Shown here one piece after another: positions 1 to 6,000 of a stretch of DNA of 64,000 nt (position 1 is its first letter; every line of letters begins with the position of its first letter). The stretch is taken from the NCBI RefSeq assembly GCF_056712565.1, contig NZ_CM160072.1; one strand, given 5' to 3'. The position numbers were made by a program.

Positions 1-3000
1 GGATCTGCGAGGCGTTATCGTTCGCAGCGATGTTAAAACGAACAATCTGCTCATCTTCTAGAAGCACAAGTGCTTTAATGACATTAAGGCGGTCTATATG
101 TTGCATTACAGACTTCCTATTGATCTTTACCTGAGGCTGAAGCAACCACGTTAATCCGACTATTTTTCGATTGCACCATCCACTATCACCATCGATCTTC
201 CCTGAGCACAACGTTCAACTCTCCCGCGTACGCCGTATACCTGCGCAAGGCTCTCTGCATGGATCACCGTTTGCGGGTCGCCGCTGTCGATAAGTTTCCC
301 CTCTTTCAGCATGATGACCTGGGCGGCATGCCGCAGTGCGATATTGATATCGTGTAAGACGACCAGCGTAACCATATTGCGTCTTCGCGTTTCGCGCGAT
401 ACAACATCCATCACATGGAACTGATAATTGAGATCCAGCGCGCTCAGTGGTTCATCCAGCAATAATAATGCGGGGCGGCGAATAAGCGACTGTGCAAGCC
501 CCACCAGCTGCTTCTGACCGCCGGACAGGCTATCGAGGTAGTTCATTGCCAGATGTGCGATGCCTAGCTCTTCGAGCAGCGCTATAGCCTGCGCCTGATT
601 TTGCCCGGCGCCGGAGGCGCGCTGGGCGACAACCACCGACTCCAGCACCTGTAAATGCACGCCCTGCGGCAGGGACTGCGGCAGGAACACAACTTTTTCA
701 GCCCGACGAGCAAACGGCAGCGATAAGAGATTCTCTTCATTCAGCCAGGCTTCGCCACTGGCGCGATTTAGCCCGGCCAGGGCGCGCAGTAGCGTTGATT
801 TACCGCAGCCATTAGGCCCCAGCAGTACAGTGACTTCGCCGCGCGGCAGCGTAGAAATCGACAGATGCTCAATAATCCGCCGTTTGCCGTAACCGGCGCA
901 CAGCGCATTAATCGTAAGCCCGCTCATGACATACTCCCTCGATGACGCATTACAATGCTCAGAAAGAACGGAACGCCTACCAGCGAGGTAACAATTCCTA
1001 CCGGTAAAATGACACCGGGAATGATGTTCTTCGACGCTACCGAGGCCAGCGATAGCACCAGCCCACCGATAAGGATGCTTCCGGGCAAATAAAAGCGATG
1101 ATCTTCTCCCAGCAACAGGCGAGAAATATGCGGTGCAACCAGGCCAATAAAGCCAATTGGCCCCACAAACGCAACCGAAAGGGCCGCCAGCAGGCTGATG
1201 CGCAGCAGGGAACCCAGGCGCAAACGGCGAACATCAATGCCAAAACTCATCGCCCGCTCTTCGCCGAGGCGTAGCGCGGTAAGCTGCCAGGCACGACGCA
1301 GCGACCAGGGTAAAACAATCGCCATCGCCGCCGCCAGCACCGCCAGTTTCTCCCATGATGCGCGAGCCAGGCTGCCCATCGTCCAGAACACCAGGCCCTG
1401 CAAAGTATCTTCATCGGCGACAAACTGCATAATGGACACCAGCGCATTGAAGGTAAACACCAGCGCAATCCCAAACAGCACAACGCCCGACGTCGGCACG
1501 CGCGTCCAGCGGGTCAGACTATCGAGCAGCAGGGCGGACAGGAGCGCAAAAAGAAAAGCGTTTGCCGGTATAAACCCGCTTTCGGGAACGCCGGGAATAC
1601 CGATGCCCAGAACAATCGCCAGCGCTGCGCCAAAGGCCGCCGCCGACGAAACGCCAAGCGTAAACGGGCTGGCGAGGGAGTTATTCAGAATAGTTTGCAT
1701 CTCTGCCCCGGCCAAACCCAGCGCCATTCCTACCAGGAGCGCCATCAGCGCATAGGGCAAACGGATGTCCCAAACGATAACCCGCATGCCGTTAGTCGCC
1801 CCGGACGGATGCATCAAAGTCTTTATCAGCGAATGTAAAGGGAGCCCTGAGGGGCCGAGGGTGAAATCGAGCAGCAGCGAAGCAATGATAGCGATAAAAA
1901 TAACCGCCAGTATTACCAGACGCTGGCGAAAAAGCTGGCGATAGCGGTTCTCGACCGACAGCGTACTTTCCAATACAGTCATGGTTTTTCACAGCCTCCG
2001 TTAGCGCGGCGGATTGAGCACATCGCTCATCTGCGCATCGCTTAACGTCAGGCCAAAGAACTGCCGATAAAACTCACGCGTCTCTTTGCGTATATCCACA
2101 TCAGCAAATCGCGCAGGATAAAGCGTTTTCGCCAGCCACAAAAATTGCAGCGCCTCTTCGCTGGTTTCACGGCACCACCAGAACATTCCTTTCGGATTAA
2201 CGTAAACGCGATGATGAATGACCGCGTCCACGCTTGCCCACTGCGGAGAACTCAGAATGGCATCCGCGTCGCGCTTGTTCATCGCGATGATAACCGCCGG
2301 ATTGGCAGTGACAATTTTCTCCAGCGCGACTTCACCCGAACGATTTTGTTGATGCTCGCCAAACCAATTTTCAGCGATATTTTTGCCGCCGGCCAGGTCA
2401 ATCCAGTCCTGGTTTAGCGAGGGTCTACCGGTGGTGGTCAGCGGATTGCCCATACTGTGATAGAGCGACACGCGCTGTGACGCAGGAAGATCTTTCAGGC
2501 GCCCGGTGACCAGGGCCACGTTGCGATCGAAGTAGCGTTGATAGGCGAGCGCTTTTTGCTGCGCATCGGGCCCCAGCACCGCTGCCGTTTGCTGTACGCG
2601 CTGCGTTAACGCCCGCAGTGAATTCGCCTCAAACGCCAGCACCTGCACCCCAGCCTGTTTCAGCAACGCCTGTTGAGGCACTACCATATTCTGCGGTACA
2701 AAAAGCATATCGACCCCCAGCGCGATAATCTGTTCGGGATTGATTTCATGCCCGCTGTTTACGCTAACTGCTGCGACTTTCTCTATGCGCGGCAGGCTCT
2801 GGCGAAACAGGGGGATCCTTTTTGCAATCATCGAGGTTCCGACAATGTTATCGCCGTACCCCAGCATGGCAATAATGGTATTTTGCGCCGGCCACGGTGA
2901 CGCGATACGCACCTCCTTGTGCGTATTTTCTGCGTGCAGGCTGGCCGCCAGCAGCAGCGCCAGCAGCGGAAATAAACGGGAGAGTTTCATCATTTATCCA

Positions 3001-6000
3001 TCAGAAATCGAAGGTGACGGATGCACGCACTTCGCGGCCGCCGCCGATAAACGCACTTGGGGAACCGTTATCGCCATCGGTACCCGATGGGAAGATAGAA
3101 GCCCAGTAATGTTTATCAAACACGTTGTTTACCACCACGCGGAAAGTGGTTGGGACGTTGCTCACTTTCGTGGTGTAACGCGTTCCCAAATCCCATGTGG
3201 TATAGCTGCTGGCGTAAGAGGTGTTGGTATCGTTCGCCGCGCGTTTGCCCGTATAATGGACGTTAGCGCTGTAAACCCATTCCGGTATGGACGGCAAACT
3301 GTATTCCGCCAACAGATTGGCCTGCACTTTCGGCACGCCGACAACCTGTTTATTGCTGGTTGAGGCATTCGCCGTATCTTTCAGTTTCGGGTCGAGGAAG
3401 GTCACGCCGCTGTAAATATTCAGCCCCTGCCACACATTCCCGGCAGCGGTTAACTCAAGGCCGTTGTTAACCTGGTTACCCTGCTCTTTATACACGTTAT
3501 CCGTATCAAGATAGGCAAACGGACGTTCCAGTCGGAACAGCGCGGCGCCTAGATTCATCTCGCCGATGTCCGATTTTAGCCCCACTTCATACTGCTTGCT
3601 GCGATACGGGTTTAGCGTTTGACCGGCATTTTTTACGCTCTCATCCGTCGGTGCGGTACCGCCCTGCTCCAGCGAATCGGCATAGCTAACGTAGGCCATT
3701 GTGTTAGGGGTAATTTTATACATCAGCGCGGCGTTCGGACTTAAACCATTTTCATCAACCTGGTTCGTTTGATTACCGTGCTTATCGTAGTTTTTAGTCT
3801 GCAGCCAGCTCTGGCTGAGATAGAACATTGCCGACCACTGCGGCGTAAATGTCACCGTATCGCCGAGCGTAACGCTCTGCTGAGTATTTACGCTGGAGCG
3901 GTATCGCGGCCCGCCGGTGCGGATTTTGCCATCGCCCTGCTCATCTATCGCATCCGGGTGATACATATTTGTTGTACCCCAGCTATAGCTGGAACCTGTT
4001 CCTTTGGCACTATAAAGCGACCAGACATATCCCGTGGTAGAAAGTGACAGATCGTGGCCGATAGAGCCGGTATCAATATGACCATTCAGCCCGGCGGTGT
4101 TGCTCAGGACGCGAAAACGTCCGGCAGCGGTGGAATCCTTCATCGAACGAGAGATATCGCCCTGATTGTTGAGTATTTTACTGGAAACACTACGCATCGC
4201 GCGGTCAGCCTGCTGCCAGCCCACGCCAGCGTTCATGGACCAGTCGTCGTTAAAGTAGTGGATCAGGCGAGTGCTGATGGTATCGGTAGTGAGGTCGTTG
4301 CCCGCAGTGCTGAGCGCCAGATTTTTGTCCTTCGGATTCGGCGCAGACGGCAGTTTGACGTTCGGCCCATAGTTAAAGCTACCGACATAGCCTTTCTGGA
4401 TAAATTCGTAATGGCTGGCGTCGAGCTGTAGCTGAGTGCCCGGCTGAATATTCCAGTCGAGCGCAACGGAAACGAGTTTGCGACGCAGCGTGCTGTCATC
4501 CACATTGCCTTCCCCTTCCTGATCAAGCAGGTTCACGCGATAGCCAAACCGTTTGTTTTCATCAAAATGGCCACCCAGATCGGCATGGCCGGTAAACGCA
4601 CTGCGGCTTTGATAGCCCAGCGTCACTTTACGCAGCGTCTCTTCGGTTGGGCGCTTCGCCACGAAATTAAACTGCCCTGCTGGGCTCGCCGGGCCGTACA
4701 GCGCGCCGGTCAAACTGTTAAGCACATCCATGCGCTCAAGCATTTCCACCGGAAACGCGGTTGTTGAAACGATATTCAGCCCGTCCAGACGGCTGTTGGC
4801 CACCACGCTGCCCTGCATCCCCCGACTTTGCGGACGCCCGACATCCATTCCACCGCGCGCCTGCATTTGCGTACTGGGAGAGTATTTCAGCATCTCGCTG
4901 ACGCTTTGCGCCTGCTGATTTTCAATCATCTCTTTAGTAACAGTGGTGCTGGAATATGGTGTTTCGATCCAGGATTTCGTTCCCAGCGGGCCGACATCTA
5001 TATCGTTCGTTTTGAAACCGGCACCGGCGGCAGAATCGGTGGTGTCGGCGGCGGTGTTGCCCGTGACAATCATTTCATCTTCAGAAGTAGACGAGGCATG
5101 AGCATGAAGCGGTATGAAAGACGCTAATGCTGGCAAAAGCGCAGCGAAAGTTATTTGAGTTTTCATGAATCACTGATCGTTATGTAAATATTTATATTAC
5201 GATCGGTGCATAGGCAAAATTATGATCCAGATCACACGTGAATGTAAGTTATTTACAAATTACGCTAACCTTCTGTCTCCGCTCTTTGCAGCATAAAAGT
5301 ATGGCGGCGCGTTGTTGAAAGCAGGAGCGGCCGGGTTGTCAGAAAGCTGGTTTGGACGCAAGTAATATATAACAACTCTGATTACCGCATACTGTCAGGA
5401 CAGTATCTACTTGAGCGTCCGCCTTTGGCACAAAGCGGACTGTCAGATTAGATTCAGACCTGTACTCATTAGCTGATACAAATCAGCCACATATACCTGC
5501 ATTCAAAATAATTTCAGAAAGATATTATCTCCGTGAATCCCCCGCCACCTTTCCGGTGCACGGGGTTTTGTCTTTTTTCACTGGGAATACATGTATGAAT
5601 CCGTCTGATGCCATTGAGGCAATTGAAAAACCGCTCTCCTCCCTGCCTTACCCGATTTCCCGTCACATCCTGGAACATCTGCGCAAACTCACCCGTCACG
5701 AACCCGTGCCTGGCATTATGGGTAAAAGCGGGGCCGGTAAATCCTCACTCTGTAATGCACTGTTTCAGGGGGAGGTCACCCCGGTCAGTGCACTCATGAC
5801 AGTGCTTCCCGGACATGCCGCCATCCATCTGATGACACGCCTGCAGGACGAACTGCGCACGGAGTCTGTCCGCACTCAGACCCGTGAACAGTTTACCGGT
5901 GCGGTGGACCGGATATTTGACACGGCGGAGAGTGTCTGCATTGCCTCTGTTGCACGCACGGTTCTGCGCGCCGTCCGTGACTCGGTGGTCTCTGTTGCCC

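Follow-up and report, generated by a model that had tools for sequence, protein, structure and literature searches.

A putative iron uptake operon of pathogenic Escherichia coli carries a predicted ModE operator and may scavenge molybdenum

Introduction

What is imported by a TonB-dependent transport operon that pathogenic E. coli carries and K-12 lacks, and which signal controls it? We analysed a 64,000-nucleotide stretch of contig NZ_CM160072.1 (RefSeq assembly GCF_056712565.1), called the window below. An earlier note had described four transport genes at its beginning as an intact iron or heme uptake locus that may preserve what K-12 has only as remnants. The four genes are already known in pathogenic E. 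coli as c2515-c2518. They lie in the cobU genomic island of CFT073, have been partly characterised in APEC O1 strain E516, and stand in the literature as a putative iron ABC transport system. We found no paper that considered ModE control or a role of molybdenum for c2515-c2518. Because the promoter contains a conserved predicted switch for the molybdenum sensor ModE, and not an iron switch, the operon probably scavenges molybdenum.

An intact operon of four transport genes

All four genes are on the minus strand. The first gene (3001..5166) encodes a TonB-dependent outer-membrane receptor of 721 aa with the Pfam domains Plug (9e-16) and TonB_dep_Rec_b-barrel (8.6e-36). The receptor has a typical signal peptide followed by a TonB-box-like DEMIVTG (AHASSTSEDEMIVTGN; identified by visual comparison with the known TonB-box pattern) and lacks an N-terminal signalling domain. 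The second gene (2001..2990) encodes a class III periplasmic binding protein of 329 aa (Peripla_BP_2, MolA subfamily). An alternative ATG at 2993 would give 330 aa; the second ATG, at 2990, is the RefSeq start. The third gene (924..1982) encodes a FecCD-family permease of 352 aa (Pfam FecCD 4.8e-82), and the fourth (160..927) an ABC ATPase of 255 aa with the ABC_tran domain, in whose translation Walker A (GPNGCGKST), the signature LSGGQ and Walker B (LLLLDEP) can be read. The genes are tightly packed: the gap between receptor and binding protein is 7-10 nt and that between binding protein and permease 18 nt, and the permease stop overlaps the ATPase start by 4 nt (ATGA). Peripla_BP_2, FecCD and an ATPase with all motifs identify a type II ABC importer of the FecCD class. 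Thus, the description of four intact, co-oriented genes for a complete-looking TonB receptor and binding-protein-dependent ABC importer was confirmed.

The four proteins are identical to WP_000856947.1, WP_000778018.1, WP_000217077.1 and WP_000016205.1 (CFT073, ST95-32). All four counterparts in CFT073 are C_RS11950-11935, which by gene order should be the old tags c2518-c2515, with the receptor (C_RS11950) as c2518, the permease as c2516 and the ATPase as c2515. Their lengths are also full in comparison with Citrobacter orthologues (722, 328, 355-360 and 258 aa there). Since the genes are full length and the proteins identical to RefSeq entries, a hidden inactivating mutation is not evident. 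The locus is present in about 17% of complete E. coli genomes and occupies the chromosomal slot from cobU to tmaR/yeeA, which is the island slot of CP4-44 in K-12. No Rfam element, B12 riboswitches included, was found at the operon locus. Upstream, a yeeP-like ORF (5556/5595..6029, plus strand) adjoins the operon as the earlier note had said. It is divergent from the operon and not co-oriented with it, stands outside the system, and is only a GTPase remnant: it has weak P-loop matches only, and just 5783-6032 (the last 250 bp) matches K-12 yeeP, at 92%.

The operon and the K-12 yoeA locus

The IS2-interrupted yoeA that had been placed next to yeeP is present in the K-12 region. It had been proposed that yoeA is a remnant of the 721-aa receptor and that the operon is the functional ancestral form of a locus left in K-12 as yoeA and small pseudogenes. 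The shared island slot and the yeeP-like remnant adjacent in both strains agree with this proposal. However, blastn of window positions 1-7000 against the K-12 region returned nothing except the yeeP 3' end, and tblastn of the four proteins against K-12 returned only a generic 30-residue plug motif (E 0.047). The receptor matches the YoeA fragment over 30 aa (blastp, 37% identity, E 0.001), and a full-length YoeA-type receptor shares 23% identity with it, in the plug only. Furthermore, YoeA is 100% identical to residues 1-167 of another receptor, of 715 aa, which lies beside cobU in CFT073 and coexists there with the operon, about 31 kb apart. The orientation is also opposite, as yoeA is on the same strand as yeeP and the operon receptor is divergent from the yeeP remnant. 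Therefore the operon receptor is unrelated to yoeA, and the ancestral form is refuted, with hardly any probability left to it. The cobU-adjacent receptor is very probably hma (c2482), the true source of the yoeA fragment. Hma/YoeA resembles the operon receptor in being a TonB-dependent receptor of the same genomic island, but it is beside cobU, on the other strand, and has the strongest Fur-site cluster of the K-12 genome. The absence of the operon from K-12 is probably why K-12-based ModE regulon studies never met it.

Control of the operon

The promoter of the receptor gene contains a predicted ModE operator, ATCGTAATATA-AATATT-TACATAACGAT (5176..5203, minus strand), which ends 9 nt upstream of the receptor ATG. 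Read as ATCGTAATATAAATATTTACATAACGAT, it matches 18 of the 20 positions of the published ModE consensus, ATCGNTATATA-N6-TATATANCGAT (PMC545781). The K-12 modA operator matches the same consensus at 16/20, poorer than the operon box, and has the right half-site TACATAACG in common with it. With up to 3 mismatches allowed, the box was the sole match in the 64 kb window; allowing 4 added none, and 100 shuffles gave no match. When about 190 kb of control loci were scanned at up to 4 mismatches, only the operon promoter and the true modA operators of K-12 and C. koseri were recovered. The box is also conserved. Of 46 informative orthologous loci, 35 have it when up to 4 mismatches are allowed and 39 when 5 are; the 35 come from Burkholderia, Nitrobacter and more than 20 genera of Enterobacterales. 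In each locus with the box (up to 12 kb) it is the sole match and directly precedes the receptor gene, usually with 6-13 nt between box and ATG; the core is kept and the spacer varies. A metagenomic homologue (46% identical) has a ModE box with 3 mismatches. The homologues of A. vinelandii, Azoarcus and Pararhodospirillum have no clear ModE box, which counts against ModE.

The surrounding promoter elements fit this operator. A candidate -10 hexamer, TAATAT (5194..5199, minus strand), is within the left half of the box. Farther upstream is a candidate site of the FNR/CRP family, TGATCTGGATCA (flanked: TGTGATCTGGATCATA; 5223..5234, minus strand), of the form TGAT-N4-ATCA. In 24/34 Enterobacterales promoters this motif, with up to 1 mismatch allowed, precedes the box by 30-32 nt, and its activator would be of the FNR or CRP type. 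The -10 hexamer and a transcription start near 5187 are placed by the fixed spacing to TGAT-N4-ATCA, if this is a class II activator site centred at -41.5. K-12 modABC likewise has an operator of the 28-bp type near the start of its first gene, overlapping a -10-like hexamer.

It could be argued that the palindrome serves a regulator other than ModE, or is an AT-rich element of the promoter, as its left half doubles as a plausible -10 and this could itself explain part of the conservation. We consider this improbable for several reasons. The palindrome agrees with the ModE consensus in its half-site sequence, in its 6-bp spacing and in the CG dinucleotides at its flanks, and its right half is exactly the one found in the K-12 modA operator. 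The control scan yielded nothing besides true modA operators. Even in Burkholderia, whose DNA is high in GC, the palindrome is retained beside modA.

A Fur box, for which the earlier note had suggested a search, was not found in the promoter. The best score in 5167-5560 was 12/19, about the chance level, and the 19-bp Fur consensus had no match with up to 3 mismatches in the whole window. The K-12 yoeA promoter, as a positive control, gave Fur scores of 15, 14, 14 and 13 of 19. Among the 46 orthologous promoters no Fur box was detected either (best at most 14/19). ModE regulation of the operon is thus well supported in silico; from the modABC-like promoter and the missing Fur box we predict repression by ModE-molybdate and expression at low molybdenum.

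What the operon imports

The transport proteins have relatives of several kinds. The receptor falls in the siderophore subfamily TIGR01783 (287.9 bits vs a cut-off of 223.5). Its closest solved structures are FemA (5e-68) and BauA (5e-58), the enantio-pyochelin receptor is also near, and CntO is among its PDB matches (1e-20). It has no equivalog match, the best being FhuA (156 bits vs a cut-off of 803). For the binding protein, a profile search of the PDB gave 4ovk (4e-32) and then MolA (HI_1472; 1.9e-26), near full length. Foldseek with its AF2 model (pLDDT 87) also gave 4ovk first and then MolA (3psa; TM 0.77, 23% identity). MolA, which binds molybdate/tungstate in H. influenzae, is its nearest characterised relative by both sequence profile and predicted fold; the subfamily also includes CeuE, a Ni-histidine binder, and YiuA, an iron/catecholate binder. 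The permease was not closest to MolB: HmuU (5e-49) and BhuU (2.5e-48) are nearer than MolB/HI1471 (2.6e-40), and BtuC is also matched. MolC was not found among the top matches of the ATPase. These results for permease and ATPase lower the case for orthology to MolBC, but not that for functional analogy.

Gene context in other genomes links the receptor family to molybdenum genes. In Burkholderia sp. Ac-20379, modA (TIGR01256, 71 bits vs a cut-off of 62.5) begins 3 nt after the gene of a receptor that is 42% identical and has a ModE-like box. In a Burkholderia MAG, a gene with a ModE domain lies about 1 kb away, and another homologue pair adjoins xanthine dehydrogenase genes.

The iron or heme label given to the locus is not supported, as there is a ModE box in place of a Fur box and the receptor scores 52.4 bits against a cut-off of 316.85 in the heme/hemoglobin receptor model TIGR01785. 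Import of heme, cobalamin or another large cofactor could be suggested by the best NCBIfam matches of the permease (BtuC) and the ATPase (heme ABC ATPase), and by HmuU and BhuU as the closest solved permeases. However, both NCBIfam matches are below cut-off, and the B12 receptor model TIGR01779 (47.5 bits vs a cut-off of 599.7) fails as clearly as the heme model. The binding protein is nearer to MolA, CeuE and YiuA than to heme binders or BtuF, and the B12 riboswitch is missing from the locus. This makes such a cargo highly improbable.

An iron importer as annotated deserves more weight. Here the receptor would take up a ferric (xeno)siderophore, the ABC system would carry it to the cytoplasm, and molybdenum, through the ModE box, would be no more than an additional regulatory input, possibly because molybdate and iron compete for catecholates or because iron supply is matched to the needs of molybdoenzymes. 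In APEC O1 strain E516, where c2515 is the ATPase and c2516 the permease immediately upstream, strains with c2515 and/or c2516 deleted produced less siderophore, grew less well when iron was depleted, contained less iron and were less virulent (PMC8075096), which is experimental evidence for a role in iron. The receptor subfamily points in the same direction, since iron in organic chelates is the cargo of FemA, BauA and the enantio-pyochelin receptor. So do YiuA among the structural neighbours of the binding protein and the A. vinelandii homologue, which adjoins a gene like F420/NADP oxidoreductases, as in siderophore-reductase loci. On the other hand, the E516 phenotypes could be indirect, and molybdenum dependence was outside that study. 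In iron-limited urine, seven iron receptors of CFT073 were induced, including c2482, and the list does not name c2518 (PMC8882828). The ModE box is conserved and no Fur box is seen here or in the orthologous promoters, modA or ModE-domain genes are linked to the locus in Burkholderia, and no siderophore biosynthesis genes adjoin the locus in any genome examined. FhuA/FhuBCD, BauA-BauBCDE and FemA also combine, across three compartments, a receptor of this subfamily with a binding protein, a FecCD permease and an ATPase; these siderophore systems are Fur-regulated, unlike the operon, which has no biosynthesis genes nearby and a single permease gene. We regard an iron importer as possible but doubtful.

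Proposed function and biological meaning

We propose that the operon is a molybdate-repressed, TonB-dependent system for scavenging molybdenum, and we give this a probability of roughly 55%. In this reading, extraintestinal pathogenic E. coli (ExPEC) acquired c2518-c2515 as an accessory operon, horizontally from an enterobacterium like Citrobacter or Pseudocitrobacter, with insertion into the cobU island. Molybdenum as the substrate is suggested by the predicted control, by the relatives of the binding protein and by the gene context. The promoter would be built like that of modABC: the ModE operator would cover the likely -10 and transcription start, and an activator site of the FNR/CRP type would precede this start by about 41.5 bp. 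Molybdate-loaded ModE is predicted to shut the operon off, so that molybdenum shortage would turn it on, probably when conditions are anaerobic or carbon-limited. The products would form an envelope-spanning importer from the TonB receptor, the MolA-like binding protein, and the type II (FecCD) permease and ATPase. The receptor, energised by TonB, may carry molybdate/tungstate or a small molybdenum chelate across the outer membrane to the binding protein, which would hand it to the ABC permease.

Outer-membrane transporters controlled by the sensor of the metal that they supply have precedents. CntO, which transports pseudopaline-metal complexes, is such a transporter. Zur-regulated ZnuD and NikR-regulated FrpB4 are TonB-dependent transporters of metals other than iron, each under its own metal sensor. 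The reviews that we consulted record no such transporter for molybdenum. K-12 ModABC differs from the operon: it belongs to the type I importers, its binding protein is of class II, and it lacks an outer-membrane component. MolBC-A of H. influenzae (HI1470-HI1472), a type II molybdate/tungstate importer, resembles the operon in combining a binding protein of class III with a FecCD-type permease and an ATPase, and its transcription is repressed by molybdate (PMC4031551). It differs in that its binding protein MolA is only 23% identical to that of the operon and that the operon permease is nearer to HmuU/BhuU than to MolB, and no outer-membrane receptor is mentioned for the mol cluster in the literature that we found.

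It is an even question whether the operon represents, in E. coli, a widespread and so far unrecognised family of ModE-repressed, TonB-dependent uptake systems for molybdenum (or tungsten). Such a family may consist in Enterobacterales of the receptor and a MolA-like binding protein, some members having a type II ABC permease of their own and others not, and in Burkholderia of the receptor and ModA. If this is true, the operon would provide the first active outer-membrane transport step for molybdenum in enteric bacteria, one gained horizontally by ExPEC, and it would help to supply molybdoenzymes for anaerobic respiration in the gut, the urinary tract or tissues.

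Gene content and surroundings of the operon

All four transport genes are intact and lie on the minus strand within the first 5.2 kb of the window. They encode a TonB-dependent receptor of 721 aa (5166-3001; Pfam Plug and barrel domains), a periplasmic binding protein (from 2993 or 2990 to 2001; Peripla_BP_2), a FecCD permease (1982-924; FecCD) and an ABC ATPase (927-160; ABC_tran). This confirms the complete-looking, co-oriented four-gene uptake system described in the earlier note. Intergenic distances are 7-10 nt and 18 nt, and the permease and ATPase genes overlap by 4 nt (ATGA), an arrangement as in a single predicted operon. 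The G+C content is 55% in the operon, 48% in the window and 42% in the spacer upstream of the operon. Rfam analysis of the whole window detected no riboswitch (Moco, B12) and no other RNA element at the operon locus; its matches were the sRNA STnc240 (22963-23037), the His operon leader (25776-25899), a JUMPstart element upstream of a polysaccharide cluster (52447-52485) and the algC RNA motif (62172-62221).

Across the spacer lies a yeeP-like GTPase remnant (5556-6029, plus strand), whose similarity to K-12 yeeP (92%) is limited to its final 250 bp. The remnant is internally truncated, the P-loop (GKSGAGKSS) being followed directly by the C-terminal part. Adjoining it are three translationally coupled genes (6247-10600, plus strand), encoding a dynamin-family GTPase of 794 aa, a YjcZ/RdcB-family protein of 301 aa and a patatin-like phospholipase of 356 aa. 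These could form a defence or membrane-remodelling module; the corresponding position in K-12 is occupied by flu (Ag43).

A 5.6-kb segment is 100% identical in the chicken isolate ST95-32, and at least 80% of it was found in 899 of 5,426 complete E. coli genomes. In CFT073, the proteins of C_RS11950-11935 are identical to all four window proteins. A study of the APEC O1 strain E516 described CFT073 c2515 as an ABC ATPase and c2516 as the permease directly upstream (PMC8075096). Thus the locus has been described before, under the annotation of a putative iron transporter; from gene order, we infer that c2518 encodes the receptor and c2517 the binding protein.

A conserved predicted ModE box precedes the receptor gene

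Alignment of the promoter with those of Citrobacter orthologues revealed a conserved 28-bp palindrome, ATCGTAATATA-AATATT-TACATAACGAT (5203-5176, minus strand), which ends 9 nt before the receptor ATG and is a candidate box for ModE, the molybdenum sensor. It agrees with the E. coli ModE consensus, ATCGNTATATA-N6-TATATANCGAT (PMC545781), at 18 of 20 specified positions; the K-12 modA operator, GTCGTTATATT-GTCGCC-TACATAACGTT, agrees at 16 of 20. The spacing does not differ between the two sites, and their right halves are identical. The box was found once in the window and in none of 100 shuffles. When up to 4 mismatches were allowed in the comparison loci, the search detected this promoter and the genuine modA operators of K-12 and C. 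koseri and nothing else.

Citrobacter encodes the nearest receptors outside E. coli (81-86% identity); there the operon, with the same four genes, belongs to the core genome and is located between aroG and gpmA, with modF and modE ~5 kb away. We scanned homologues in one genome per species, with a 10-sequence receptor alignment as query, and obtained 48 loci, 46 of them informative; in this set the E. coli copy was closest to Pseudocitrobacter faecalis (94%) and Cedecea colo (93%). The box was present with at most 4 mismatches in 35 of the 46 informative loci and with at most 5 in 39. It always lies directly upstream of the receptor gene, usually ending 6-13 nt before the start codon, and is the sole such match within each orthologous locus (loci up to 12 kb). 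The genera with the box include Kluyvera, Pluralibacter, Klebsiella, Franconibacter, Leclercia, Enterobacter, Serratia, Brenneria, Pantoea, Mixta, Mangrovibacter, Erwinia, Pectobacterium, Yokenella, Intestinirhabdus and Cedecea, and, beyond these Enterobacterales, Burkholderia and Nitrobacter. Information content is ~2 bits at CG-TAATATA and TTTA-ATA-CG and about zero in the central spacer. Judged from sequence alone, the operon is very probably under ModE control.

In Pectobacterium sp. PL152 (L038, ~4919), only the right end of the box present in the related loci L035 and L037 is recognisable; an insertion or rearrangement may have destroyed the left part. Diazotroph homologues (A. vinelandii, Azoarcus, Pararhodospirillum) were considered as regulated members and set aside, as they have 6-9 mismatches to the box and different extra genes. 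In Azotobacter vinelandii CA (L042 4764-11702), a receptor of 46% identity is followed by a 279-aa ORF of no recognised family and then by genes for a binding protein, a FecCD permease, an ATPase and a protein resembling F420/NADP oxidoreductases. Regulation of this locus may differ because it has no clear ModE box.

Gene layout varies among the orthologues. The order receptor, binding protein, permease and ATPase is seen in Citrobacter, Pseudocitrobacter, Pluralibacter, Yokenella and E. coli, and the receptor and binding protein genes stand as a pair in Serratia, Pantoea, Mixta, Providencia, Pectobacterium, Erwinia and Mangrovibacter. Since this two-gene layout has neither permease nor ATPase, it suggests that the pair can pass its cargo to an inner-membrane transporter whose genes lie elsewhere.

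Predicted promoter architecture

Upstream of the box is TGAT-N4-ATCA (5234-5223, minus strand), a core common to FNR and CRP sites. Of 34 Enterobacterales promoters, 24 carry this motif with at most 1 mismatch, beginning 30-32 nt upstream of the box. Its 5' flank resembles a CRP site in some genera and an FNR site in others, and its 3' half is mostly ATCAA, so that the flanks do not decide between FNR and CRP. A second small inverted repeat, TGTAAATAACTTACA (5241-5257, minus strand), lies just upstream of this site and is not obviously conserved in other genera.

If TGAT-N4-ATCA is a class II activator site centred at -41.5, the spacing would place the -10 element at TAATAT (5199-5194, minus strand), inside the left half of the box, and transcription would start near 5187, within the box. 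ModE bound there would therefore block RNA polymerase. The left half of the K-12 modA operator likewise holds a -10-like TATATT. Because the box ends so close to the ATG that the promoter must overlap or precede it, repression would be the only plausible mode of ModE action at this promoter. A generic scan of 1-5700 for sigma-70 promoters and terminators was uninformative, with counts equal to those in shuffles; an alternative promoter, CTTACA-18-CATAAT (5248-5219), was not adopted.

The operon is unrelated to K-12 yoeA

The earlier note had suggested that the locus may preserve the intact ancestor of the yoeA remnant and small pseudogenes of K-12. K-12 carries yoeA, as two fragments split by IS2, and then yeeP, both on the plus strand. 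Comparison of window 1-7000 with the K-12 cobU-yeeA region (blastn, word size 7) recovered the yeeP tail only, and tblastn of the four proteins against the same region recovered nothing beyond a generic plug motif of 30 residues. Of 5,426 complete E. coli genomes, 2,101 contain YoeA-type sequence; its usual annotation is a plug-only fragment, but some genomes encode the receptor at full length (715 aa). This full-length protein is 23% identical to the window receptor, in the plug only.

K-12 YoeA (167 aa; L001 10636-12475) matches residues 1-167 of CFT073 C_RS11765 with 100% identity; C_RS11765 is an intact 715-aa receptor right after cobU (L005 27325-29472). It lies ~31 kb from the c2518 operon, and CFT073 carries both. 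By position, C_RS11765 is very probably hma, the locus tag of which is c2482 (PMC2736566). Since YoeA is the N-terminus of C_RS11765 and both searches were negative for the operon, the K-12 island appears to retain an hma stump without any trace of c2518-c2515. Thus yoeA belongs to another receptor, an outcome that the earlier note had named as refuting its reading, and the parallel with K-12 proved wrong although the neighbourhood looked right.

Substrate of the transporter

In profile searches of the PDB the binding protein best matched 4ovk, an uncharacterised Veillonella protein (4e-32), and then MolA/HI_1472 (1.9e-26), nearly over its full length. Foldseek with its AlphaFold model (pLDDT 87) gave 4ovk, MolA (TM 0.77), CeuE and YiuA in this order; CeuE binds Ni-histidine and YiuA iron/catecholate. 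In H. influenzae, MolA is the binding-protein component of the type II ABC importer MolBC-A, which transports molybdate and tungstate; the MolBC-A transcript drops ~10-fold on addition of molybdate (PMC4031551, PMC4245157). The permease is closer to HmuU and BhuU than to MolB. To judge from these similarities, the ABC part resembles MolBC-A in kind but is not its orthologue.

Gene context in other bacteria also includes molybdenum genes. In Burkholderia sp. Ac-20379 (L046 330-3230), a receptor of 42% identity is preceded by a ModE-like box, 26 nt from its ATG, and followed, 3 nt on, by modA (TIGR01256, 71 bits against a cut-off of 62.5). A Burkholderia MAG (L056 7976-8713) has a gene for a ModE-domain-only regulator ~1 kb downstream of the receptor homologue, its repressor domain scoring 75.6 bits and thus falling short of the cut-off (98.5). 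A homologue from a metagenome, of 46% identity, has its own FecCD, ATPase and binding-protein genes and a 3-mismatch ModE box ~170 bp upstream, and another binding-protein/receptor pair adjoins xanthine dehydrogenase genes. A Serratia neighbour with a MoCF_biosynth domain was rejected as a link because it appears to reflect the ordinary synteny of yfaY/yfaZ.

The main rival reading takes the operon for an importer of ferric siderophores that is cross-controlled by ModE. This reading is supported by APEC E516 mutants lacking c2515 and/or c2516, which made less siderophore, grew less well when iron was depleted, contained less iron and were less virulent (PMC8075096), and by the receptor itself, which scores above the cut-off of the siderophore-receptor subfamily TIGR01783, with no equivalog match, and has FemA, BauA and the enantio-pyochelin receptor as its nearest solved structures. 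Heme and B12 receptor models scored far below their cut-offs. However, the Fur box upstream of the receptor that the earlier note, reading the locus as iron/heme uptake, suggested looking for was not found. The Fur consensus gave no match in the window with up to 3 mismatches, and the best match upstream of the receptor was 12/19, a quality expected by chance about once per 400 bp, whereas the positive control, the K-12 yoeA promoter, which has the strongest Fur-site cluster of K-12 (PMC2189734), scored 15, 14, 14 and 13. No Fur box was present across the 46 promoters, as none of the 46 informative orthologous loci had a Fur match above 14/19. In addition, c2518 is not among the receptors reported to be induced in iron-poor urine (PMC8882828). 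Elsewhere in the window, an AT-rich stretch at ~38-49 kb contains many weak Fur-like matches; we take this stretch to be probably the O-antigen cluster.

The best-supported reading is that the operon is a molybdate-repressed TonB-dependent molybdenum uptake system, and we put the probability that molybdenum is the substrate at about 0.55. The MolA-like and ModA partners favour a free oxyanion as cargo, and the siderophore-type clade of the receptor favours a small molybdenum chelate.

Significance

In current descriptions of enterobacterial molybdenum uptake, molybdate diffuses through porins and is then handled by ModABC. Reviews of the substrates of TonB-dependent transporters (2024) and of the role of molybdenum in pathogens (2020) mention no transporter for molybdenum in the outer membrane. 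In a literature search of incomplete coverage, which did not extend to regulon databases or the 2003 ModE-site survey, we found no paper in which ModE or molybdenum is tied to this locus or to any other TonB-dependent transporter. ModE studies based on K-12 could not have met the operon because K-12 lacks it.

If this reading is true, molybdenum would join iron, zinc, nickel, copper and cobalt as metals actively taken across the Gram-negative outer membrane, and an ExPEC/APEC locus linked to virulence, at present classed among the iron systems, would need re-labelling. It would also be relevant to anaerobic respiration with molybdoenzymes, which matters for blooms of Enterobacteriaceae in the inflamed gut, where tungstate is used to suppress them.
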